Translations under genes and position numbers: made by a program
Source: a virus
Taxonomy: Duplodnaviria > Caudoviricetes
Virus record (IMG/VR): IMGVR_UViG_3300014205_000025
Coordinates: 860-64,859 of that record
Reading direction: 5' to 3' (one strand)
DNA length: 64,000 nucleotides
Part shown: in pieces, positions 40,075 to 52,563 of the stretch
How positions within the stretch are numbered: the first letter of the stretch is position 1
Layout: each line of letters starts with the position of its first letter
Notes under the pieces: model-generated
Told to the model about the DNA's origin: nothing
What the model saw: only the letters and a program-made list of their open reading frames with translations
Database searches by the model: none

Positions 40075-43000
40075 CTATCGGGCAGGGGGGCCGCCCATCA
40101 TGTTCTCCGCGCCGCGGCGGAACTGGTCAATCTGCGGCCTCAGATGCTTCGGCGCCTCCTCCAGCATCCTCCAGCCAGCCGGCATGTTGGCCGTGCCCAC
40201 GGCGTCGGACACCTGCTTTCTCGTGATCGGATGCCCTTCCCCGTTCGCCTTGGCGATGATTTCTCCCGCCCGGCGATAGTCCTTGTTCCGAACCGCCTGG
40301 ATGATATCGGCCATGTAGGCGGCTCGGTCGCGACGGTATTCCTCGATCGTCTGGGCAGTCTGCCGCATGCCGCTCCGCAGCGCCGTGACGCCTGGTGGCG
40401 TGAAGTTGAACGCCGCCCCCAGCAGTTGCAGGTTCGTCGGCTCATAGAGCAGCTTGCCCTGGCGCCTCCAGTCCGTCCATGCGGACTTCCCATCACCCAG
40501 CGCGTCGATGAACCCCCGCGATCCGATCGTCATGCCGTTGGCGGCTGCTTCCAGCGCCTTGAGCGGGTTCAGCCCTGGCGATAGCGCGGCCAGGCGGTCG
40601 ACCAGACCAGCGTTCTTGGCCGCGGCCTGCTGCTGCGCTGCCACCTTGCTCCACCAGGGGCCTGACAGATCTGACATGGCTTCCGGTAGCGCGCCGACAC
40701 CGAGCCCGACCGACTGCGAGATATCGGTGTAGAGCGCCGGCAGGCCTCGGGCGAACACCGTTGCCGTGTTGGCCGTCCAGCCGCCGACCGCCTGCCATTC
40801 CAGGACGGTCTGTTCGATGGCGCCTTGCGGGCTCCAGCCGTTGGTCAGCAGCTTGACGCCGGCGTTCATGACCTGGAAGCCCGGCAGCGCCAGCGCGCCA
40901 CCCAGAACAGCCATCATGGCGACCGTCTTTGCCACCTTCGCCGCCGGGATGGAAAATACCCGCGCGATCAGTTGGAACAGGAAGTTCTTGAACTGACCAG
41001 GCATGCGCGCCCACTGCTGGCGCAAAATCTCAGGCTTGTTCGCGTTGCCCATGTGGAACTGCGTGTCGCGCACCACCTTGGTTGCCTGCTCGAAGGCGTC
41101 CCGCGGAGTGTGCCCGGCATCGGTCGCGCGGGCATAGCCACCGAAGAAAGCGACGGCCCGGTTGATGTTTTCAGCCGACTGGAAAGCCCACATGCTGAAC
41201 TTCGCCAGCTTGCTCTCATGCTCGGCCAGCACCGGACCGGCTTCCGTGATGCGATAGAGCGTCTGGATCCCGGCCCGCTCCATCAGCCTGGTGTCGGACG
41301 TCGACTGTCCGCGCATGGCGGCCCAGGTCGCCGCGGCAGCCCGGTTCATGCCCCGCAGCGTGTACTTCAACCCGATTTCCGGGTAGGTGTTCACTGCGGT
41401 CTGCATCAGGTTGACCAGGGCGGATTTGATGTTGATCACCATGCCAAGCAGCATGTGCGCCATGCCGGTTGTCATGTGCGACGTGAACTGCCGGAACGGG
41501 AAGTCGGTGTAATGCTCGGGCGGCTGCCAGGGCACCGCCTTGCCGGTCAGGGTCTTGTACATCTGGTATCCGGCATACCCGCCGAATGCCGCGGAAATCA
41601 GCGGCGAGGCAGCGCCGGCAACGCCGAAGATGCCGGTGACGCTGGCCAGCGCGGTGCCAGCCAGGCCGGTCATCAGCACCGTTGCCGGCACCGGGAACCG
41701 GCGCAGGGCGGCGTCGATGGTTTCCTCGAACCCCTGCTTGCGGCCCATGACGTCATCCAGCCAGGACGCGAACGCCCGTTGCAGGGTCTTCCGCTCCTGC
41801 GTGACGATCCGATACGGCCCGATCCCCGCCTTCTCCATCGCCGTGATCGCCTGGAATTTCAGCTTGTCCATGGTGACATAGCGCACGGTCTGCCCGATGT
41901 GCGTCCGCATCACCCGGTCCATTTCCCGGGAGTAGCCCTCGGCACCTTCACGGTGCAGGCCTGGGCCATACATGCGCCTGCGGTTCTGCCGCCGGGCTAC
42001 ACCGGTCAGGATTTCATCGAGCGCCGGCCCGCGCAGCTCGACCTTTGACGCCAGGTTGCGCGCCAAGCGACCGAACGCCGCGTCCGATACCGTCGTGCCC
42101 TCGATGCCGACAGGCCACTGGATCTGCTTCGGCGCGATCAGCATTTCAGCGTCCGGGTTCTCGGCCTTGTAGGCAACGGCCGCGTCGATCGCCTCCTCGC
42201 GCGTGTTGTAGAAACCCTGGTCGGATGTGATCTCCGTTTTCTCGCGCTCGCCGGTCTCGGGATCTTCCTCGCCCAGCACCCACAGCCGCCAGGAGCCGTA
42301 GAACTTGTGTGGGACGTAACCCTTGACCCGCCCGCGCACGCCCGAGGCGTTCAGGCGAGCCTCCAGCGCGTCGATGTTGTCCTGCATGTCCGAAATCCGG
42401 GCCTGGATATCGGGGTCCTGCGCGCGCATGGCGCGGAGCTGGACGTTGATCGCCTGGATGGCCGCGGAGTCGACCGCCGGGTTTTTGCTCTTGCCGCGTG
42501 CAATGCGCCTGGTGAGCGTGGCACGCCGGCGATAGAGCCGGCCGGCCTCCGATCCGGGAACCTTGGCGTGATCCAGGATGCGCTCCAGCGCGTCGATCAG
42601 CCTCTGCTTCTCGGCGCGAACCTTGGGCATCATGTATCGACGGTGGTTGTCCACCAGCCGCGCCTGGGCCTCCAGTAGCTTGTGGAACGACATGAAGGCC
42701 TCGGCCTCGGCGTCGTCCAGGTCAAACTCGTTGAACAGGTCCGCCCTGGCATCGGCGTCGGCAATGTCCACCTGGTCGGCGTCACCCGCCCATAGCGCCT
42801 CTGTCACCTTGTCGAAGCTGCCTTCGGCGTCGTCGAGCGTCTTGCGGATCTGGTCATAGCGATGCACCAGCCTGGTGATCCACCGGCTTTGCAGTTCCTC
42901 CGCGCGAATCCCCGCCGCGATCACGGGGGCCAGTTCCGTATGCTGGAACACCAGCGTCGGCGTCTTGAACGGCGCCGTCAGGCTGGAAATGTCGCGCCGC

Positions 43001-46000
43001 TCAAGCGGCTGTTCGACCGTCACGCCATCCGGGACCTTGGTGCCGCTCCACAGCTTGGAGACAGCCGCATCGGTCGCCCGCTTGGTCCGCGCCGCCGCCT
43101 CCGCCAGCATCCGCTTCAACTCAGGAGACATGCCCGCCATGAGGCTGACGTCCCCTTCATCGGTGGGCAGTGTCAGGGCGCGCTCCAGTTCCGCCGCACG
43201 GCGGTCCTGCTCGGCCATATCCTGCGGGCCGCGGGGTGCCATGCGCGCCGTGGCGCGTGACCCTACCCGACCAGCCGTCGTCCTCTCGAAGACACCTTCG
43301 GCGGTCCGCAGCCCGCGGCCTTCCAGCGCGTTGCGGAAAGCACCCAGGAACCGCTGCGTCTTCTGCCAGGCCCGGCCCAGCACGCCACCGGTCGGAGCGT
43401 CCTTGTCGCCCCGGCTGGCAGAGGCGAAGGCCTCGGCAATCGCCTCCTCGATCTGGCGATCTTCCGGCAGGTTCGGATACCGCTTTGCCACATCGAAGCG
43501 TTCAACCCAGCCCTGCCGCCGGGCGGCCGCCTCCAGCGTCTTCCATTCCCCCGGGGAGAACAGTCCGAGGTTCCGCAGGACGTGGATGCTCTCGTGATGC
43601 AGGTTCCAGTGGAATCGCTCCGCCCGCGGCGCCTCGGCCACGCGCATGAGCCCGCCCATGGCGAACCCGCCGATATCGGCGCCTGCGTTCGTCGACATGC
43701 CGGCCTGTGCCGTCATCGTGCGGGGGATCGTCTGCACCCGGCCCTTGGGCCCGACGATCTTCTGCACGGCTTCGATAGAGGCTTGGGTTACGGCCGGATC
43801 GGTGGGGGCGATCGGCTCACTCTCGACGCTCTCCCAGCCTGACAGCGCCCGCGCCTGTTCTGGCGTCTGGCCGGCGGACAGCATGGGCTGGATGAACTCG
43901 CCCGTGTCGTCGAGCGTCATCGTCCATTTCAGGGAGAACGCTACCGCCTTGTCCGGGTCCTTGAGCGCGTCCGAGAAAGACGTTCCGGCCAGTTGAGCGG
44001 TTACGATCGCGAGGCGCTCGCGCTTGGCGTCCAGATCGGCAGCCTTCGCCCACGGCTTCCCCACCTGCTCGCGCAATTCGGGGATGCGCTTCCCAGCCGT
44101 CGCGGCGTGTGAGCGGACCTCGTCGGCCGTGCCCTTGAAGTCTACCAACCGCGTCCGGTTCAGCAAAACATCCAGGCCACCGCGGATCATGCCGACCCTT
44201 ACCTCGTGGCCCTCATTGTCCGACCAGTACGGGATCATCGTGCGGCCTGATTTCTCCTCCTTCAGAGAAAAGGCATACTCGGTAGTCGGATTGCGTCTGA
44301 AACTGCTGTGCCGCGCGTCGACCTCAACCGGCATGCCGTTGATCGTGATGCCATCGACAGTCATCCCCCGGCTTATGTGGGCATCAAAGGCCGCCACGAC
44401 GTCCACGGCCAGGACGCCAACGTCGATGTAGCTCTTGCCCTTGAAGGTCGCCTGGAAGTCCTCGGTCCCGAACGCCTGCGCGATCGCCCGATCAATGTTC
44501 GCCTGGGTTGTGTGCTTCTCGCCCCCGATCTCGATCGAATAGCGCGCCTTCTCGTCACCAGCCCTCTGGCGGACGATTGCGGCATCTGCGGCAGCCTTTG
44601 CCGACGTCCGGCTCCTGACAGTGCCCCCCTCGACGGTGGTGCTGCGCTTGTTGCTCGCTTCCCGCGCGTCTTCGATGCCCTTCTTCAATTCCGCATCGAA
44701 TGCTTCGTACCACGCCGCCGTTGCCGGTGCGTCCGCCACTGCCTTCTCGGCGGTGGCCAGTTCATCCCTCATGGCGGCCTGGGACTTGGTATAGGCGCGC
44801 TGCTGGATCTCCAGCTTCTGGATGTCGCCATCCAGCGTCACGCGCTCCACCATCAGCGGGTTTCCGGTCGCACGCGCCGCCATCTCGGCCATGCTTTCCG
44901 CCTCGGTGTCCTCGAACTCCATCATGAAGGAGCCGTCGTACTTGCGGATGCCGTTGATCGTCTTGAGCTTGCCCGCATTGAGCGACCACATTTTCGCGTC
45001 GGTGGTCATCTCGGTGGCGTAGGCGATGATCTCTACGGCGAAGTCGTCGCCGTATTTCTTCAACAGCAGGTTGCCCTGGCGGATGATGCGGCCTTCGCGC
45101 TGCTCGATGTCGGACGGCTTCCACGTCACGTCGACATGGTGCAAGCCGACAAGCCGGTCCTGCACGTTCGTCCCGGCGCCCATCCGCTGCGTCGATCCGA
45201 TCAATACCCGGATCTTGCCCGACCGCACCTGCGAGAACAGCGCCTTTTTCTGTTCGTCGGTCCCGGCCTCCTGGATGAACCTGATCTCGTCAGCCGGAAT
45301 ACCTTGCTGCACAAGCTGCTTCTTGATCTCCGCATAGGCGTTCCAGCCGCCGGCCAGTGCATCACGCAGCGCCTCGACCTCGGATGCGTTGAACTTCTCC
45401 AGCTTGTCCGCGGCGACGCCCTGGGCCTTCTCGTCCTGGTCCTCTATCGCCTTCTGCATCGCAGCGCGGGCCGCGTCATAGGCCTGAACGATCTTGTCGT
45501 CGCCCTTGGACGTGGGCACCGATCGATCCAGGAAGATCACCTGCGTCCCCAGGTCCTTCTCCCACTCTCGGTAGATGCGCGTGACGTTCTTGACCACGGC
45601 GCCGATCTTGCCCGTGCCGTCCTGCACCCTGGTCCTGGGATTGATCGCGCGCGCATCGAGCGACACCTTCCGCCCGCGATCCATGAGCCGGAACATTTCG
45701 GCGGACCGTTCCTTCGGGTCCCTGATGTCTTTCAGTCCCTCGAACCCTACCACCAGGTCCCGCAGGATGGCCCGCTGCTCAGGCGTCGGCGCGATCGTGA
45801 TCTGCTCGCGTTCGTCCCCATTGCGGCGATCTGACAGCACATCCGGGACCGGGAACTTCTGGCCCGGATTGTCCTCCGCAAATACCTCCTTCAAGTCCTG
45901 CAAGGTCACGGCATCCGTGACCGAATAGTACAGGTCCATGAGGGACTTCATGTTCATCCACTCGCGGCCGAGGCGGGTGACCTCCTTCATGCCGCCAGCC

Positions 46001-49000
46001 TCGGTCGGCTCCCACGCCGAGGCATAAGCCACGAACATCGACCGCCAGGCGTCGAAGTTGTCCAGGCCAAGCTCTTTCAGTTCCTTCGGCGCCAGGTTCT
46101 TGAGGACCAGATACATTTCCGAGGCGGAATTGCTGATCGGCGTGCCCGTCAGGAACGCAACCGACGAACCCGGCCGCTCGCGCAGCGACCGCAGTTTCAG
46201 ATGCAGGTCCATGGCCTTGTTCGACCCGGCCTTGTTCCCCATGCCTGATACATTGGTCAGGCGGGATGAATAGGACAGGTTCTTGAACTCGTGCGCCTCG
46301 TCGATGGTCAGATCGTCGATGCCCATTTCCTCGAACGTCAGCAGCCGATCCCGGTTGCCATCGCGCAGCTTTGCCAACCGAGCCTCAATCTTGGCGATCA
46401 GACGCTCCGCCTCGGCCACGCCGAATGGCTTACCCCAGCCGCCTTCTCCGCTTGCCGCCGCGGCTTCCTCCGCCTCTATGGCTGCGGCCATCGCGTCGGC
46501 CAGTTCCTCCATGAGGAAGCGTTCTTCGGTCGCCTGGTCCAGATCGATGAACCCGAACGAACTGTGCCCGATGATGACCATGTCATAGTCAGCGGACGCG
46601 ATCTTCGCGAACAGCCGGCGGCGGTTCTTGCGGTCAAAGTCGGCCTCGCCCGCCACCAGGATCTTCGCCCCGGGATAGAGCTTGGCAACATCGCCGCCCC
46701 ACTGCTCGGTCAGATGCTTGGGCACCACGACCAGGGCCTTGCGCGTCAGACCCATGCGCCGGCGTTCCATGATCCGGGCGATGGCAACGAACGTCTTGCC
46801 CGCGCCGACGACATGGTCATAGAGCACCACCGGATCGGTGACGCCTCGCCAGATGGCATTCATCTGGTGACGGCGCATCTTGATCATGCTGTCCGGGACC
46901 TTGCCCGGCAGCGTCAGATGCGATCCGTCCCGTTGGCGCAGGACACGGGTGTTGAACTTCTCGTTGAACACCTTGACCAGCCTTTGCCGCCGATCGTCGT
47001 CGCTATATGCCCAATCCAGGAACTCGTTGAAGATCTCGGCCGCCTTGGCTTCCGTCTCGGCCGTGGCTTCTTCCGCGAAGATCAAATTATCATCCTGGTC
47101 CCTATAGGTCACTCGCATCGACTGCGAGTTGAGCAGCCGGCTGACGATATCGTCCGTCTTTCGTGCGCGAGCAACGCTGGTCGACCACTGCACCTTCGCC
47201 GTGCCATCGGCCATCACCGAGAAGCTGTTGGTCTTCTCGCTGTACAGCACGGTGGCATGGTCATAGCCGAGCGACATGAGGAAGTCGGCGTAGATATCGG
47301 GCGGTATCCACCCGCTACCGATGTTCGGCGTGATCTGCCCGGCGTTCCAGTCCTCGGGCATGACCCCTTCCAGGGCCTTCACGTTCGCCTCCAGGCGGGC
47401 GTCCCTGGCGGCGTTCAGCTTGCGCCGCACCTGCCCAGACAGATAGCCGTCCTTCGGCTCCCACAGGTTCGTCTCGGGATCGAAGAACGCCAGCGGCGAG
47501 GCGCCCCCGGAAATGGCCTTCTCCGCGCCCGCGGCATCCGTGCCCAGCAATTCCGCCAGGCGGTCCAGGTCCAGCACCCCGCGCTCGCTCAACACCAATG
47601 CGATGGCGTCGGACGGACTATCCGCCTTCTCCGCCATCTTCGGGGGCGACGTGACCCGGCGGCTCATGATCGCCGCCTTGGTATACTTCGGGTCCTCTCG
47701 GGTCCCCACGTTCTCCTCCACCGAGAGGATCAACGCGCCGTCGGGCATGGTCGTGGCGATAGCGATGGATTTGGCGTTGTGCAGCAGGCCATGCTTCTTC
47801 ACGAAGGCGTCATAGGCCTTGTTCAGCTTCTCCCGGTTGGCGGTCAGCATTCGGTCGGGTGAGTCCTGCGTCTCCAAGGACAACTGCGTTTTCAGCAGTT
47901 CCCGGATGGGCAGCATGTCGGTCATCATTTCGATGCGCTCGGCGCCCCACTTGTCCCTGGTCGGGATGTCGGCGGTGGTGGCGTATGTCGTCGTGACCTT
48001 CTGGTTGTAGCGGGTCGGCTTGCCGTCGGCGTCCAGCACCTTCAGCGGCTTCTTGTCCGGCCCCTTTCGGTCCTGGGTCCGCTCCCACTTGCCGTCTCGC
48101 GTGTAGCTGTACTCGGGATTGAACGGCGTGTCGGCGGTCAGCGGGATCTCGCGCATCAGGGGCTTGCCGCCGCCGTAGACGGACACCACAACCTTGAGCC
48201 CGCCCTTGTCGGTGCGCGTGACGGCACCGACCTCCGCCCGATCGACGGCCAGGCGCATGGCGTCGGCCATCAGGTTGAACTGCTCCAGCGTCCTTTCCGC
48301 GATGTCGTCCCGCGGCCGCCCTGACGGCAGGCGTGCGATGGCCTTTGCCAGCATCGGCTCAAACTGCGCCGGGTCATCCAAGGTCACATTCAGCGCGGGG
48401 TCAGAACCATACATCGTGCCCGCCGCGGTGATCTTGCCGATGACCATGTCCGGTCGGCGGATGAAGTACTGGTTGGCGTTGATCATCGCATCAGACCCGG
48501 ACGGATCCCGGGTTGCCTCCGCGACGGTCCATGCCTCGATTTCGGCCTTGATCCGCGTGTAGAGCGCGTCCGGTTCCTTCGGCGCCTTACCCCCGGCTAG
48601 TTCAACGGCGACCTGTTGCGCGACAGATGCCTCCTCCCCGCTCCGCTTGCGGAAGAACAGGATGTCAGTCACGACCTCGGTGCCGGCATTCTCCTTGAAC
48701 GCCGTGTCAGGCAACCGGATTGCCCCGACAAGGTCGGCTCGCTTGGCCAGTTCAAGGCGGTTGCTGCGGTCAAGCGCGTCCATCAGGAAGTGCGACACGA
48801 CCATGGCCACCAGACCGCCTTCCTCGACGGCATCAAGCGATGCCTGGAAGAACTGGTTGTGGATGGTCTTCCGGTTGACCTCGGGGTTGTAGCGGAAATA
48901 CAGGCTCTCGTTGCCGAACGGCGGATTGCCGATCGCCAGGGCAAACTGGTTGCGAGGCAGCGGCACGCTCTGAATACCCGAGTGCAGCACCGAGGCGTTG

Positions 49001-52000
49001 GGATACAGGTTCTTGGCGATGCGCGCGGTGAGGCTGTCATATTCGACCGCCAGCACCTTGGACGTGCCGCGCAGTTCCTGCGGCATCAGGCCGAGGAAGT
49101 TGCCGGTCCCGACCGACGGCTCCAGCACCGCGCCGCCGGTGAAGCCCAGCCGCTGCACGCCAGACCAGATGGCCTCAACGACCGCCTGGCTGGTGTAGTG
49201 CGCCGCCCTGGTCGACGCGCGGGCCGCGCGCAGTTCCGGCGCCGTCAGCAGTTCTTCAAGCTCGGCTACCCGCTTCTCCCAGCCCTTCGCGACGCCCTCG
49301 CCTTCCCCCGAGCCGGCGACACGAAAGGCGTTCTTCAAGCCGCCCCAGCCGACATACCGGGCAAGGACGCGCTGTTCGTCCGGCGTCGCGCGCCGGTTCT
49401 CGTCCTCGATCTTCTTGAGCGTCTTGATGGCCGCGACGTTGTCCCGGTACTTCTCGCCCTCTGAGCCCTTCCCAAGCTCCAGGCTGTCATCGATGACGAA
49501 ATCGATCGCCGGGATGTTGCCAGACGATGCGTCCTCAAGCGGCGGGGCAGCGTCGGGTTCCGGCGGCGGCTTGGCGGCCTTCTGCTTGGCTGCGGCCTTC
49601 TCCTTCTTCGGCCGCGGGGCCTTCGGCGCTACGCCAGTTCCGGTTCCGGCGTCAGGTAGATCAGTTCCCGTAGAACCATCTCCTCCGCCTCGAACTGTTG
49701 CATCCCCGCCTGCATCAGTTCCGACACCTGCCGTGCTGCTTCCTTGCTCGCCGCCTGCACTTCCTGATCCAGCGTCCCCGACCGGAGCATCTCCGCCACC
49801 ATCTTCGGGCGCCACTGCTTCCAGTGTTTCAGGGCTGTCTCCGTATACTGTAGGCCCAGCATTCTCCAGTTCCTCCTGCGTCATGTATTCGGGCGAGCGT
49901 TCCCTAACCGTGATGCCGCCTGCCGGGTTAATCGAGACCGGCTCCGTCACCCGGATACCGTCCTCGGTGTAGGAGCGAACGCCGCGGCCGTCCTCGAATA
50001 GAGGATTGTCGTAGAAGTTGGTGCCGATCCGCGTCCATTCCAGCCGAGGCGGGGTAGCGGGCGCCGGGGGCGCAAGGGCAGGCTGCGGCGCCGGCGGCTT
50101 GCCTACACCCGCTCCTGGGGCTTCAACGGTTTCGACGGCCGGCCGCCCCTGTTCCCCTGGTCCCTGAACGCTGGGGCTGGGGCTTGGGGCGCTCGGCTCG
50201 GGATCCCGTCGGGGGCCCCGGTCGGGTTCGGTGGTGACGGTCGGCCGGCCTTGATTGTCGGCAGGCCGTGGCCGAGCGACCGGAGGACGCTGCCCGCCGC
50301 CGTCTCCAGCCTCGCCGCCAGGTTCCTGGCCTGCGCCCTCTGCTGTGGTCTCAGGCCGGGTTGGCGGTTCGCTCGCATCCGCAGGCGCTTGGCCGCCATT
50401 GTCGCCGTCGCCACCGCTTCGTGTGGATCCTCCATCTTGTTCCTCCTCGATCGTCACCGGGATCTGCACCTGATCCCATGCGTCGTTGCTGCCCGGCGTG
50501 CCCTGCGCGGCCAGGTCCATCTCCAGCAGCTCGGCTTCGACCATCAACTGCTGGATCGGCTCGGGTTCTGGCTCCGGTGGGACTGGTGCCGGCCCGGCTG
50601 GCGCATCCACCGATGCGGGGATTCCCATATCGGTCGGGGCTGGTCCCGGCATGTCCGACACTGGTTCTGGCGTGCCAGCCGGCTGTGTCGCCGGCGGCTG
50701 ATAGCGCAGGGGATCGGTGGTGTTTCCGCGTCGGGCCCAGCGGATGAACTGCGGCCAGCCCATGTCCGACACGGCGCCCATGCGAGACTGGCCGGACCCG
50801 TTGGAGAAGCCAGCGCGATATGCCGTCTCGGCAGCCTGGCGCGTCGGATACCCGATCATCGCCTTGTGTTCGTCGAACTGGCCCGTCTTTGGGTCGATCT
50901 GATCGACGATCCAGACCGGGTGCTGGTTTGCCTCATGCGCGCTGGGACCGAGGTAGACGTCAACCGGATCGCCGTCGGCGCCCTTGCTGCGCTTGATCTC
51001 GCCATAGTCGCCGGGCATCACCGTCGTCCACGGCTTGCCGTCCGGGTCGATGCCGTGCCGCTCTCCGCCCGCCGGCGTCTCGATCGCGATGTCGAGACCG
51101 TGCAGCTTGGCGTGGACCTTCTGGTAATTGCCGGCCGCGGCCTGATCTGGCGTCGGCGGCTTGGCGATCAGGGGCGCCACGGCCGCAAGGTCGTTTGGCT
51201 GAACCACGTTGATTGGTGACGCCTTCGTCCCGTCGCCATCGCGCAGCGCGTCGGACCAGTCGACGTCCTGGGCTAGTCCCTCGGCGTCGGTGATCCACTT
51301 GTCCAGGTCGGCTTGCGTCGGCACGTCCAGCACCGAGCCGACCGGATCCCCGGCAGGATCAAACAGCGTCCACTCGCCGCCCGGCTGCTCCTGAATTGTG
51401 AAGCCTTCGGGGAGGCGCGAACGGGCATCATCCACCGCGCCGGTCTGCTGCGCCGCAATCTCGGCCGCGATCTCCTCATTCGGCCGCGGGTCGTTCAGCA
51501 TGTTGCCGAGGCTTGTCTTGCGCGCGGCGATGGTTGCGGCCGTGTTGATCGGAAGCATCAGGCCTTCAAACACCTGCCGCACGCGCGCCATGAACGCATC
51601 CGGCGTCATGCCCGGCGTGCCCGGCGGCGCCTTTTGCATCGTCTCCTTGACGGCTTGGTCCAGCACTACCGCCAGTTCCGCGTCCGGGACATGAGGGTAC
51701 GTCTGGCGGCGCTCGGCCGCTGGCATCATCGCATCCAAGGCCGCTACGGGAGAGACCGGCGGCGCGACGGGCTCCGCAACCATGACCGGCGACTGTTGCT
51801 GCGGACGGGGCGCGGCCGATGGCGCTGCGGGGGCGGTTGGCGCCGGCTCGACGGGGCGAGGGGCCGCCGGCGGCGGCGTGCCTTCGTTGGTCTGCTGGAG
51901 AACTTCACCCCATGTGGTCGGAAGCGGCCCTGCCGGGCGAGGCGCCCCCGGAGAACCCGGCGGACTGCCAGGGGCCGGACCGCTCGGCATGGGCGAGTCC

Positions 52001-52563
52001 GGCCCGGTCAGCCGGAGCGTGCCTGGGCCGGAAGGGCCACGGGCAACAGGCGCGGCGCGCGGCGGCGCCGGAATGGACGGCCCGCCCATGAACGCTTCCG
52101 GCATGGCCGCAACATCGCGCCCAAGCTGTGGATTGCCGAACTCGTCGAACAACTGCTGAACGCCGGCCTGCGCGCCACGGAACAGGCCTGCGCCGGCACG
52201 GGCCGCCAGATCGACGCCGGCGCCGAGCGTCGCAATCGGGTAGGCGATCGGCCCCCACTCTTGAACCGCGCGAGCCTGTTCCTCGCGCGATAGGTTGATG
52301 ACGCCGCCTTCCCGGAACCCCTGGACGCCACCGCGCATGGCCGACTCCAGCACGCGCCCTGGAGCCGCGTTCACCGAGTCCATAAACGACGGCGCCGGTT
52401 CATCCGGCGTGATCCAGTCATCGACCTCGGGCATTGCTGGAGCTGCTGCGGCCATCGGCTCCGCTGGCGTGATCCAGTCGTCCACTTCGGTCGGCGAGGC
52501 CGGGGGCGGCGCTGCCTGCTGGCCAGCGATCATGGCTTCAACGCGAGGGCGCCAGTCGCTCAT
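40075..52563 (-). CDS. darB: Giant polyvalent internal virion protein, DarB-like (InPase-like domain, N6-adenine MTase, SNF2-type helicase, HExxH domain, ejection-protein C-terminus)
   Basis: 4162 aa. IAIETP.G..R.G.DP.G..W...M...YG.I....GADGD.VDVY.G; EPSVGTG and GNPPFG; HVVGAGKT, IDEAHEFKN, GTPISN, IGST...GAGTNVQ; HHESIH. Confidence 0.92.
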   Translation of the reverse strand: MSDWRPRVEAMIAGQQAAPPPASPTEVDDWITPAEPMAAAAPAMPEVDDWITPDEPAPSFMDSVNAAPGRVLESAMRGGVQGFREGGVINLSREEQARAVQEWGPIAYPIATLGAGVDLAARAGAGLFRGAQAGVQQLFDEFGNPQLGRDVAAMPEAFMGGPSIPAPPRAAPVARGPSGPGTLRLTGPDSPMPSGPAPGSPPGSPGAPRPAGPLPTTWGEVLQQTNEGTPPPAAPRPVEPAPTAPAAPSAAPRPQQQSPVMVAEPVAPPVSPVAALDAMMPAAERRQTYPHVPDAELAVVLDQAVKETMQKAPPGTPGMTPDAFMARVRQVFEGLMLPINTAATIAARKTSLGNMLNDPRPNEEIAAEIAAQQTGAVDDARSRLPEGFTIQEQPGGEWTLFDPAGDPVGSVLDVPTQADLDKWITDAEGLAQDVDWSDALRDGDGTKASPINVVQPNDLAAVAPLIAKPPTPDQAAAGNYQKVHAKLHGLDIAIETPAGGERHGIDPDGKPWTTVMPGDYGEIKRSKGADGDPVDVYLGPSAHEANQHPVWIVDQIDPKTGQFDEHKAMIGYPTRQAAETAYRAGFSNGSGQSRMGAVSDMGWPQFIRWARRGNTTDPLRYQPPATQPAGTPEPVSDMPGPAPTDMGIPASVDAPAGPAPVPPEPEPEPIQQLMVEAELLEMDLAAQGTPGSNDAWDQVQIPVTIEEEQDGGSTRSGGDGDNGGQAPADASEPPTRPETTAEGAGQEPGGEAGDGGGQRPPVARPRPADNQGRPTVTTEPDRGPRRDPEPSAPSPSPSVQGPGEQGRPAVETVEAPGAGVGKPPAPQPALAPPAPATPPRLEWTRIGTNFYDNPLFEDGRGVRSYTEDGIRVTEPVSINPAGGITVRERSPEYMTQEELENAGPTVYGDSPETLEAVAPEDGGGDAPVGDAGSGSAGGEQGSSTAGVGTDAGGDATVRGGGDGSTGTDLPDAGTGTGVAPKAPRPKKEKAAAKQKAAKPPPEPDAAPPLEDASSGNIPAIDFVIDDSLELGKGSEGEKYRDNVAAIKTLKKIEDENRRATPDEQRVLARYVGWGGLKNAFRVAGSGEGEGVAKGWEKRVAELEELLTAPELRAARASTRAAHYTSQAVVEAIWSGVQRLGFTGGAVLEPSVGTGNFLGLMPQELRGTSKVLAVEYDSLTARIAKNLYPNASVLHSGIQSVPLPRNQFALAIGNPPFGNESLYFRYNPEVNRKTIHNQFFQASLDAVEEGGLVAMVVSHFLMDALDRSNRLELAKRADLVGAIRLPDTAFKENAGTEVVTDILFFRKRSGEEASVAQQVAVELAGGKAPKEPDALYTRIKAEIEAWTVAEATRDPSGSDAMINANQYFIRRPDMVIGKITAAGTMYGSDPALNVTLDDPAQFEPMLAKAIARLPSGRPRDDIAERTLEQFNLMADAMRLAVDRAEVGAVTRTDKGGLKVVVSVYGGGKPLMREIPLTADTPFNPEYSYTRDGKWERTQDRKGPDKKPLKVLDADGKPTRYNQKVTTTYATTADIPTRDKWGAERIEMMTDMLPIRELLKTQLSLETQDSPDRMLTANREKLNKAYDAFVKKHGLLHNAKSIAIATTMPDGALILSVEENVGTREDPKYTKAAIMSRRVTSPPKMAEKADSPSDAIALVLSERGVLDLDRLAELLGTDAAGAEKAISGGASPLAFFDPETNLWEPKDGYLSGQVRRKLNAARDARLEANVKALEGVMPEDWNAGQITPNIGSGWIPPDIYADFLMSLGYDHATVLYSEKTNSFSVMADGTAKVQWSTSVARARKTDDIVSRLLNSQSMRVTYRDQDDNLIFAEEATAETEAKAAEIFNEFLDWAYSDDDRRQRLVKVFNEKFNTRVLRQRDGSHLTLPGKVPDSMIKMRRHQMNAIWRGVTDPVVLYDHVVGAGKTFVAIARIMERRRMGLTRKALVVVPKHLTEQWGGDVAKLYPGAKILVAGEADFDRKNRRRLFAKIASADYDMVIIGHSSFGFIDLDQATEERFLMEELADAMAAAIEAEEAAAASGEGGWGKPFGVAEAERLIAKIEARLAKLRDGNRDRLLTFEEMGIDDLTIDEAHEFKNLSYSSRLTNVSGMGNKAGSNKAMDLHLKLRSLRERPGSSVAFLTGTPISNSASEMYLVLKNLAPKELKELGLDNFDAWRSMFVAYASAWEPTEAGGMKEVTRLGREWMNMKSLMDLYYSVTDAVTLQDLKEVFAEDNPGQKFPVPDVLSDRRNGDEREQITIAPTPEQRAILRDLVVGFEGLKDIRDPKERSAEMFRLMDRGRKVSLDARAINPRTRVQDGTGKIGAVVKNVTRIYREWEKDLGTQVIFLDRSVPTSKGDDKIVQAYDAARAAMQKAIEDQDEKAQGVAADKLEKFNASEVEALRDALAGGWNAYAEIKKQLVQQGIPADEIRFIQEAGTDEQKKALFSQVRSGKIRVLIGSTQRMGAGTNVQDRLVGLHHVDVTWKPSDIEQREGRIIRQGNLLLKKYGDDFAVEIIAYATEMTTDAKMWSLNAGKLKTINGIRKYDGSFMMEFEDTEAESMAEMAARATGNPLMVERVTLDGDIQKLEIQQRAYTKSQAAMRDELATAEKAVADAPATAAWYEAFDAELKKGIEDAREASNKRSTTVEGGTVRSRTSAKAAADAAIVRQRAGDEKARYSIEIGGEKHTTQANIDRAIAQAFGTEDFQATFKGKSYIDVGVLAVDVVAAFDAHISRGMTVDGITINGMPVEVDARHSSFRRNPTTEYAFSLKEEKSGRTMIPYWSDNEGHEVRVGMIRGGLDVLLNRTRLVDFKGTADEVRSHAATAGKRIPELREQVGKPWAKAADLDAKRERLAIVTAQLAGTSFSDALKDPDKAVAFSLKWTMTLDDTGEFIQPMLSAGQTPEQARALSGWESVESEPIAPTDPAVTQASIEAVQKIVGPKGRVQTIPRTMTAQAGMSTNAGADIGGFAMGGLMRVAEAPRAERFHWNLHHESIHVLRNLGLFSPGEWKTLEAAARRQGWVERFDVAKRYPNLPEDRQIEEAIAEAFASASRGDKDAPTGGVLGRAWQKTQRFLGAFRNALEGRGLRTAEGVFERTTAGRVGSRATARMAPRGPQDMAEQDRRAAELERALTLPTDEGDVSLMAGMSPELKRMLAEAAARTKRATDAAVSKLWSGTKVPDGVTVEQPLERRDISSLTAPFKTPTLVFQHTELAPVIAAGIRAEELQSRWITRLVHRYDQIRKTLDDAEGSFDKVTEALWAGDADQVDIADADARADLFNEFDLDDAEAEAFMSFHKLLEAQARLVDNHRRYMMPKVRAEKQRLIDALERILDHAKVPGSEAGRLYRRRATLTRRIARGKSKNPAVDSAAIQAINVQLRAMRAQDPDIQARISDMQDNIDALEARLNASGVRGRVKGYVPHKFYGSWRLWVLGEEDPETGEREKTEITSDQGFYNTREEAIDAAVAYKAENPDAEMLIAPKQIQWPVGIEGTTVSDAAFGRLARNLASKVELRGPALDEILTGVARRQNRRRMYGPGLHREGAEGYSREMDRVMRTHIGQTVRYVTMDKLKFQAITAMEKAGIGPYRIVTQERKTLQRAFASWLDDVMGRKQGFEETIDAALRRFPVPATVLMTGLAGTALASVTGIFGVAGAASPLISAAFGGYAGYQMYKTLTGKAVPWQPPEHYTDFPFRQFTSHMTTGMAHMLLGMVINIKSALVNLMQTAVNTYPEIGLKYTLRGMNRAAAATWAAMRGQSTSDTRLMERAGIQTLYRITEAGPVLAEHESKLAKFSMWAFQSAENINRAVAFFGGYARATDAGHTPRDAFEQATKVVRDTQFHMGNANKPEILRQQWARMPGQFKNFLFQLIARVFSIPAAKVAKTVAMMAVLGGALALPGFQVMNAGVKLLTNGWSPQGAIEQTVLEWQAVGGWTANTATVFARGLPALYTDISQSVGLGVGALPEAMSDLSGPWWSKVAAQQQAAAKNAGLVDRLAALSPGLNPLKALEAAANGMTIGSRGFIDALGDGKSAWTDWRRQGKLLYEPTNLQLLGAAFNFTPPGVTALRSGMRQTAQTIEEYRRDRAAYMADIIQAVRNKDYRRAGEIIAKANGEGHPITRKQVSDAVGTANMPAGWRMLEEAPKHLRPQIDQFRRGAENMMGGPPAR
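49629..49862 (-). CDS. TnpV-like protein overprinted in the +1 frame of the giant gene
   Basis: AGGAGG 9 nt upstream of ATG; RPKMVAEMLRSGTL...EAEEMVLRELIY matches the TnpV pattern (RP..Y.ELL.SG.L...AEEIVL.ELIY). Confidence 0.75.
   Translation of the reverse strand: MLGLQYTETALKHWKQWRPKMVAEMLRSGTLDQEVQAASKEAARQVSELMQAGMQQFEAEEMVLRELIYLTPEPELA
50103..50435 (-). CDS. Second overprinted +1-frame gene in the giant gene (110 aa, basic helical N-terminal half)
   Basis: GAGGAGG 6 nt upstream of ATG; AAKRLRMRANRQPGL...ARNLAARLETAA is helix-like while the host frame is low-complexity. Confidence 0.55.
   Translation of the reverse strand: MEDPHEAVATATMAAKRLRMRANRQPGLRPQQRAQARNLAARLETAAGSVLRSLGHGLPTIKAGRPSPPNPTGAPDGIPSRAPQAPAPAFRDQGNRGGRPSKPLKPQERV

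Follow-up and report, generated by a model that had tools for sequence, protein, structure and literature searches.

We identified a small open reading frame (ORF), here called ORF A, in the +1 frame of a giant gene carried by a tailed phage (Duplodnaviria; Caudoviricetes), and it is very probably a real protein-coding gene embedded in what reads in the frame of the giant gene as an inter-domain linker. The window, that is the whole 64,000-nucleotide stretch analyzed, covers positions 860 to 64,859 of IMG/VR virus record IMGVR_UViG_3300014205_000025. It contains nearly all of this complete 64,859-bp record, which has direct terminal repeats at its ends. The giant gene, referred to below as the host gene, encodes a polyvalent protein, and ORF A runs from 50435 to 50103 on the same strand (minus), with its start signals and its entire coding region inside the host coding sequence and out of its frame. 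A first-pass annotation made from the letters alone had proposed ORF A as the second of two overprinted genes in this frame, each with its own Shine-Dalgarno (SD) sequence and ATG, the other being a TnpV-like ORF (ORF B). Conservation among relatives, a codon periodicity that follows the +1 frame, and distant homologues that are also nested bear this proposal out. Related contigs and loci are designated L002–L021.

The start signals of ORF A are as first described: the sequence GAGGAGG, a spacer of 6 nt and an ATG, with an open frame to 50103. SD and ATG underlie the residues E-E-E-Q-D-G of the host protein. Only three of the 215 ATGs in the 12.5-kb host gene have a 5-mer SD core 3–10 nt upstream; one of these is in frame, and the other two are the starts of ORF A and ORF B (49862). 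The combination of SD and ATG at ORF A is unusual for the gene. The host Asp/Asn codon at the nested start ends in T in all lineages, while GAT makes up 31% of the Asp codons here; the Asp-codon tally of L010 was set aside. Among eleven gene starts compared, the two nested ORFs have the strongest SD sequences and that of the giant gene is weak. We found neither a sigma-70 promoter nor an intrinsic terminator around ORF A or in L014 by pattern scan.

Close full-length relatives of the host protein (P0003, P0004 and P0005, encoded on L010, L011 and L012/L013) were recovered by a word-indexed protein search with host residues 470–1000. Searching with the +1 product identified a 110-residue protein, P0067, on the 616-bp scaffold L014, and a metagenome scan added L015. 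The relatives derive from marine and freshwater assemblies, and a landfill sequencing run contains the window in full and may be where it came from; IMG/VR scans with the ORF A protein (P0001) and with profile A2 gave no match. The window phage, L010, L011, L012/L013, L014 and L015 all have the same ATG, 110–111 open codons and a stop at the same codon, although the stop occurs in three versions (GTG TAG; GTT TAA in L011; ATC TAA in L014). The upstream context is likewise found in three forms. In the window phage and L010 the host residues ...IEEE precede QDG and the SD is GAGGAGG-N6. In L011, L012 and L015 an 85-codon host insertion ending in ...GEDDGG precedes QDG and the SD is GGAGGG-N4. 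In L014 the flank is AT-richer, with stops in all frames, and the SD is AGGAGGG-N4; homology of this scaffold to the others extends only from 10–17 nt before the ATG to 9 nt past the stop.

Two of these contexts have features of their own. The 85-codon insertion (PPISQWQRDNIQAVKDLLDKAPLIRAQIKYLHEEGMVAKEIAKVIGWDVD...; L011:4200-4452, L012:4134-4392) lies exactly between the IEEE motif and the start of ORF A. It looks small, helical and helix-turn-helix-like, rebuilds the SD GGAGGG from Gly-Gly codons, and adds a second in-frame ATG four codons upstream (MEGRMEDPH). L014 (1-616) places ORF A between unrelated flanks. Its upstream part has stops in all frames to nt 157, along with an inverted repeat whose arms are 9 bp long (GAAAAGTCT...AGACTTTTC); from nt 158 no stop interrupts the host frame before the contig ends, and no ATG, GTG or TTG occurs in it. 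Just 3' of ORF A (L014:557-597) is a perfect 14-nt direct repeat, GCGGAAATCGCGGC, with a period of 21 nt, which in the host frame reads AEIAARD/AEIAARI and is heptad-like. Either ORF A stands free in L014, or the scaffold is a chimeric assembly.

The substitutions among close relatives follow the nested frame. In a 339-nt alignment, with all pairs compared by the NG86 method, the ratio of non-synonymous to synonymous substitution rates (dN/dS) in every pair is 0.08–0.28 in the +1 frame, 1.1–5.7 in the host frame and 1.2–2.1 in the +2 frame, ratios that are to be read qualitatively because NG86 is biased for overlapping frames, for which it was not designed. Third codon positions in +1 correspond to first positions in the host frame, and the 54 sites that differ between the window phage and L010 fall 29/11/14 on host positions 1, 2 and 3. 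Four phylogenetically independent contrasts yield 81 substitutions, distributed 43/19/19 over the same positions (chi-square p=8e-4). Eighty of them can be classified in the +1 frame, and 49 of these are synonymous there, compared with 24.2 ± 4.0 (maximum 41 in 20,000 randomisations) when the same base changes are re-dealt to random sites with no host-frame stops allowed. In the host frame the 81 substitutions comprise 18 synonymous and 61 non-synonymous changes, plus 2 that create a stop when applied singly. These comparisons show purifying selection on the +1 frame at the protein level, beyond what the host frame demands; one further pair, L017/L021, is uninformative.

The rest of the host gene served as a control. 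A 110-codon window was moved along the codon alignment of the window phage with L011 and with L010, and elsewhere in the 4162 codons the ratio of non-synonymous to synonymous proportions (pN/pS) of the host frame is 0.02–0.7, while the off-frames are mostly at or above 1 and exceed the host frame everywhere else. A single strong reversal is found, at residues 708–842, where the host frame is at about 1.0 and the +1 frame at 0.34–0.43. A weaker reversal at residues 858–1010 lies over ORF B.

More distant copies of ORF A are also nested. A profile (A1) built from five +1 products was run with hmmsearch over 1.84 billion representative proteins. In addition to P0067, the search recovered five small proteins of 82–124 residues (E=1.6e-12 to 9.7e-4), which are 38–43% identical to P0001 and have the hairpin core in common. 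On the contigs of these five (L016–L020), and on L021 from a species-genome collection, the small ORF is nested at +1 relative to a host frame that runs through the entire contig without a stop. As far as the sequence reaches, that host frame encodes the InPase domain followed by a conserved acidic helix, the motif P-G-x-x-D-A-W and finally a stretch of low complexity; ORF A follows the InPase module in the window phage and in L010, L011, L012, L017, L018 and L021. In blastp comparisons across lineages the +1 translations score 26–83 bits, and the host-frame and third-frame translations 8–40 bits. ORF A has so far been called only on short contig fragments on which the giant ORF is truncated, and standard annotation misses it. 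Judged by these matches, the family is almost restricted to the nested position, the one ambiguous case being the 616-bp contig.

The first-pass annotation had asked for conservation of the SD, ATG and open frame in homologues, and had set against its own proposal the idea that the SD-like sequence is a by-product of Glu-Glu codons. In 9 of 10 copies from seven lineages, positions -15 to -4 contain a 5-mer SD core, against a background of about 4% of positions and 1.4–3% of ATGs. The host residues that encode it vary by lineage (EEE, DGG, TEA, QEE, QEQ, KEA and WS). Since the host residues behind the SD change from lineage to lineage, adjacent Glu codons do not explain it.

Both frames are maintained across the overlap. 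When the ORF A protein was recoded with phage codon usage, the host frame remained open in 16–47% of trials per lineage, a product over seven lineages of about 1e-4. The host frame is open in all seven, with conserved host domains on both sides, and the third frame is closed in all; by this measure, openness of the host frame is itself selected. The host frame over ORF A is otherwise unconstrained and behaves as a disordered spacer. Host residues 710–820, between the InPase domain and a small beta domain, are G/P/E/D/R-rich with an isoelectric point (pI) of 4.4, and AlphaFold2 gives them a predicted local distance difference test score (pLDDT) of 33–40 and no secondary structure, in agreement with the earlier description of a G/P/E/R-type linker after InPase. 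The G+C content at codon positions 1/2/3 is 0.71/0.63/0.85 in the ORF A frame, 0.64/0.46/0.85 in the bulk of the gene, and 0.85/0.72/0.63 in the host frame over ORF A; the coding-like pattern of the nested frame recurs in all distant lineages and in ORF B. Because of this composition and the maintenance of the frames, the linker DNA would be primarily ORF A coding sequence that the polyvalent protein reads through as a spacer. The suggestion that inter-domain linkers serve as coding space holds for both ORF A and ORF B.

Several points weigh against ORF A as a gene. Between L017 and L021 the two frames show no asymmetry over ORF A, each having about 21 synonymous and 45 non-synonymous changes; central ORF A differs strongly in this pair, and the alignment followed the host protein. 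The close relatives amount to only about four independent branches. Initiation inside an ORF that is itself being translated may be inefficient. ORF A is also accessory, since most of the InPase polyvalent proteins examined (L006–L009) are without it. No counterpart was found in the IMG/VR relatives L002–L009, and in L006 the linker consists of a P/S/A/T repeat whose +1 frame is interrupted by stops. Finally, no family, fold or defence library returned a match, and any function of ORF A, including the role of regulator given to it by the first-pass annotation, is conjectural.

A programmed +1 frameshift, which would join the N-terminus and InPase domain to ORF A as an alternative C-terminus, would leave the identical selection signal on the +1 frame. 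In prfB, for instance, the +1 shift is stimulated by an SD within the gene. Here the SD lies a few nucleotides before the frame junction, and the +1 frame is open for 6–44 codons upstream of the ATG depending on the lineage. However, the copies share no slippery, hungry-codon or stop-codon motif, and the host-frame stop of a prfB-like site is absent. The spacers between SD and ATG all differ (AACAAG, CAGG, CCGTCG, CCGACCG, CAACCAGCCG, CGCCAA and TGCAGAAG), while an ATG at canonical distance from the SD is always there. In the window phage a TGA closes the +1 frame six codons upstream, and the flank in L014 has stops in all frames. We therefore regard a frameshift as improbable and independent initiation of ORF A as the better account.

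ORF A could also be the relic of a captured free-standing gene that is silent when nested, its signal stemming from the past or from recombination with free copies. The module boundaries, which coincide with the SD and the stop, the intergenic-looking flank of L014 and the coding-like G+C pattern would all fit such a history. However, pairs in which both copies are nested still show the excess of synonymous changes in the +1 frame (10.5 synonymous and 2.5 non-synonymous in L010/L011; 12.5 and 5.5 in the window phage and L012). In seven lineages the ORF is nested and retains SD, ATG and stop at about 40% protein identity, which points to long persistence in the nested state, and the 1.84 billion representatives contain no free-standing homologue, the ambiguous L014 aside. 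A silent relic is accordingly very improbable, and a gene still in use is preferred.

The frame could also be open by chance in a linker of 69% G+C, with no product. Alternative-frame ORFs of similar length are common in the gene: the open stretch of ORF A, at 116 codons, is the fourth longest in the +1 frame, and those in +2 reach 201 codons. The length alone is within chance expectation, and products rich in R, A and P are typical of off-frame GC-rich DNA. The +1 frame also stays stop-free in 24% of the randomised trials described above, so that its openness in close relatives proves little and the periodicity is the strong evidence. An accidental frame is contradicted by that periodicity, which favours +1, by the frame reversal unique along the gene, and by homologues of about 40% identity conserved only in +1. 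The SD kept through different host residues, the stop kept through sequence change and the coding-like G+C content at third positions also contradict it, and we consider it highly improbable. Least probable of all is a constraint on the nucleic acid, such as RNA structure or a packaging or recombination signal, which would fit the high nucleotide identity in parts of the segment but would yield neither a 3-nt periodicity centred on +1 third positions nor conservative replacements in one frame only, and would not keep about 40% protein identity over diverged DNA.

The protein predicted from ORF A is 12 kDa with a pI of 11.9. AlphaFold2, run on an alignment of only five sequences, places helices at residues 4–24 and 30–53 (pLDDT 84–91), consistent with the earlier description of the first 55 residues as basic and helical. 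The residues invariant in alignment A2 (R21, A22, R24, Q25, P26, L28, R33, R37 and A40) cluster at the turn of the hairpin. Residues 56–110 are modelled as a disordered tail (pLDDT 51–58) with no secondary structure. The tail motif is kept in the L016, L017 and L021 lineages, and in L016 the host-frame translation differs. Searches of Pfam, PHROGs, NCBIfam, PADLOC, a PDB sequence profile, Foldseek against PDB and the ESM Atlas gave no usable match; the best library match is TetR_C_31 (E=0.021, below its cut-off), and the Foldseek rows are generic helical hairpins with E>1. By these searches ORF A is a new orphan protein family added to the polyvalent-protein toolkit. Coordinates of ORF A, its signals and the neighbouring features are given in Table 1.

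Table 1. Coordinates of the nested ORFs and of surrounding host-gene features in the window
Feature	Position	Strand	Description
Host gene, polyvalent protein	52563..40075	-	single ORF, 4162 codons / 4162 aa
InPase domain	50737..51147	-	host aa 473-609; Pfam PF18823, E=3.7e-43
Acidic host-frame helix	50503..50556	-	about host aa 670-687, IQQLMVEAELLEMDLAAQ; followed by the P-G-x-x-D-A-W motif just upstream of the nested start; conserved
TGA in the +1 frame	50454..50456	-	six codons before the nested ATG; closes +1 upstream
SD of ORF A	50442..50448	-	GAGGAGG; host codons Glu-Glu-Glu
Spacer	50441..50436	-	AACAAG, 6 nt
ATG of ORF A	50433..50435	-	built from host GAT-GGA (Asp-Gly); same ATG in all close relatives
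ORF A (protein P0001)	50103..50435	-	110 codons + TAG, +1 frame of the host gene
ORF A residues 1-58	50262..50435	-	basic helical hairpin; core (A)KRLRMRA(N/T)RQPGLxPxQRxxARxxAxRLE
ORF A residues 59-110	50106..50261	-	Pro-rich basic tail; motif SPPxP...PDG(I/L)P...AP(R/Q)A
Stop of ORF A	50105..50103	-	TAG
Small beta domain	49864..50040	-	host about aa 842-900; separates the nested ORFs in the window phage; AlphaFold2 beta strands, pLDDT 81-90
ORF B (P0073)	49629..49862	-	TnpV-like, 77 codons, same +1 frame; SD AGGAGG at 49877..49872, 9 nt upstream

ORF B has a pI of 4.9 and resembles Pfam TnpV (PF14198) over 57 residues (E=9e-4; 19.6 bits, below the 27-bit cut-off). This sub-threshold likeness is confined to ORF B; assignment of ORF A to TnpV was rejected, as there is no TnpV match at E<=1. 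ORF B also matches phrog_938 ('endolysin', profile length 2185) at profile positions 2094–2154 (E=2.8e-5). As this match lies near the end of the profile, large proteins of other phages may end in a TnpV-like module fused to them in frame.

ORF B, too, is under selection in the +1 frame. Read in +1, its L017 and L021 copies differ by 12 synonymous and 3 non-synonymous changes; read in the host frame, by 2 synonymous and 13 non-synonymous ones. The windows at host residues 858–1010 are reversed in the comparison of the window phage with L011. Homologues of ORF B, including those found by tblastn, are nested in +1 in L002–L005, L010, L011, L017, L018 and L021. They lie 12–34 nt past ORF A in L017, L018, L019 and L021, with no beta domain between. 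ORF B is absent from L012, L013 and L015, where an AAA_34/Helicase_C_4 helicase replaces the methyltransferase (MTase)-SNF2 part. L016 and L020 have ORF A but no ORF B, and there other domains of the host protein come next. This pattern of presence and absence indicates that ORF A is passed on together with the InPase module, and ORF B together with MTase-SNF2. Such co-inheritance is consistent with, though not proof of, the suggestion in the first-pass annotation of one partner per adjacent domain.

The host gene encodes a polyvalent protein of the phage type as defined by Iyer et al. 2017 (PMC5512222): one polypeptide joins many mutually unrelated domains linked to conflict, the phage-only InPase among them. 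The order is a P/A-rich N-terminus, InPase, the linker, the small beta domain, an N6-adenine MTase, an SNF2 helicase and a C-terminal helical or membrane-like part; Pfam identifies InPase (PF18823), SNF2-rel_dom, ResIII and Helicase_C, and full-length homologues (4050–4351 residues) have the identical Pfam set. The region has no blastn match among PLSDB plasmids and a single weak match, to the InPase part only, among INPHARED phages. The acidic helix upstream of the nested start corresponds to a helix at positions 22–37 of the AlphaFold2 model of the host segment, with low pLDDT, and the columns of alignment A3 that are invariant at this helix and the DAW motif are E199, L204, A208, L211, E212, L215, A216, P221, G222, D225 and W227.

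The small beta domain (W-x-R-I-G-x-N...LFED...VRS) is present once in the window phage and as two tandem copies in relatives (L010:4465-4860, with equivalents in L011 and L012), and is missing between the nested ORFs in L017, L018 and L021. The two-copy form also occurs in contigs of two other metagenomes, where 434 or 313+78 letters replace 179 or fewer; these contigs are further L010-type relatives and were not counted as independent evidence. The start of the host gene (52563) has nearly no SD (gggaaccccttgtaATG). It overlaps the stop of an upstream 709-residue ORF by one base, which suggests translational coupling of that ORF and the giant gene. At host residues 1435–1583 (about 47815-48260, minus strand) the comparison of the window phage with L010 gives a host pN/pS of 0.7–0.86 against 0.5 for +1 in three windows. 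This reversal involves just 14–15 substitutions, is not seen in the comparison with L011, and is probably noise.

We propose that ORF A would be translated by internal initiation at its own SD and ATG on a long late polyvalent mRNA. Because the nested SD sequences are the strongest and the start of the giant gene is weak, the small nested proteins could be made in excess of the giant protein. The product would be a very basic helical hairpin with an Arg-rich tip, followed by the Pro-rich tail. It might work with the InPase module encoded upstream as a chaperone, packaging adaptor or neutraliser, docking on the acidic helix being one possible mode, and ORF B might do the same for the MTase-SNF2 module. 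We would suggest, tentatively, that the basic hairpin binds the acidic helix or InPase module, or nucleic acid, and helps to fold, package or restrain the polyvalent protein.

As to its origin, a small-gene cassette reaching from SD to stop may have joined the fused polyvalent ORF and been read through in another frame. Alternatively, ORF A may have arisen by de novo overprinting and then taken over the constraint. We favour capture of a cassette because the module boundaries fall at the SD and the stop, the G+C pattern is coding-like and the flank in L014 is intergenic-like; the failure to find a free-standing homologue, noted above, counts against it.

The closest parallel is Rz1 in Rz, the spanin genes of phage lambda. 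There, too, a small gene lies wholly inside a larger one on the same strand, shifted by +1 and equipped with an SD and start of its own, and its product cooperates with that of the larger gene. To our knowledge well-supported embedded genes in tailed phages are few, and Rz1 is the textbook case. ORF A is embedded in the same manner, one stretch of DNA being used twice. However, its host is a 4162-residue polyvalent anti-restriction-type protein and not a lysis protein, the overlap is a disordered linker whose host frame is unconstrained, and two embedded genes occur in a row. ORF A has no relation to Rz1 in sequence or fold, and lacks a lipobox or signal peptide.

Overprinted genes of small viruses (phiX174 B/K/E; RNA viruses, PMC8227390, PMC3494269) resemble this arrangement in having two maintained frames under asymmetric constraint, one of them disordered, and a narrow taxonomic spread. 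ORF A differs in belonging to a 65-kb double-stranded DNA phage with no strong pressure on genome size. In small viruses the novel frame is usually the disordered one, whereas here the embedded frame is ordered, constrained and normal in third-position G+C content, which is easier to reconcile with capture of a cassette than with de novo birth.

Polyvalent proteins of phages and conjugative elements (e.g. P1 DarB) have been inferred to be packaged and injected (Iyer et al. 2017, PMC5512222), and the host gene, with its InPase, N6-MTase and SNF2 helicase, is typical of those described there. Genes embedded in linkers are not part of the architecture set out in that survey, in which the words 'overlap', 'frameshift', 'TnpV' and 'linker' have zero occurrences, and our literature search found nothing on genes embedded in polyvalent proteins. 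What appears to be new, then, is the setting of this embedded phage gene: it occupies a polyvalent-protein linker, a second nested gene follows it, and of the two overlapping frames it is the nested one that is constrained.

The comparative support for ORF A is unusually clean, and it indicates that the DNA for a linker between domains of a polyvalent anti-defence protein can code in two frames. Because at least seven related phage lineages have retained ORF A and its evolution is that of a genuine protein, the DNA of this 'linker' would mainly encode a second, hidden protein. Changes that are silent in the host frame can abolish the nested start, so that a simple genetic test is possible. Low-complexity linkers of giant phage proteins may merit a second reading, and caution is warranted in treating them as free sequence in phage engineering or when selection is inferred. 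A broader reading, doubtful at present, is that such linkers in a clade of giant phage polyvalent proteins would primarily be independently translated small genes, each encoding a dedicated partner of the adjacent module (a chaperone, packaging adaptor or inhibitor) and inherited with it as a recombination unit. If this is true, polyvalent proteins would grow by fusing neighbours across small genes that are kept intact, a general gene-in-gene route that gene callers miss.

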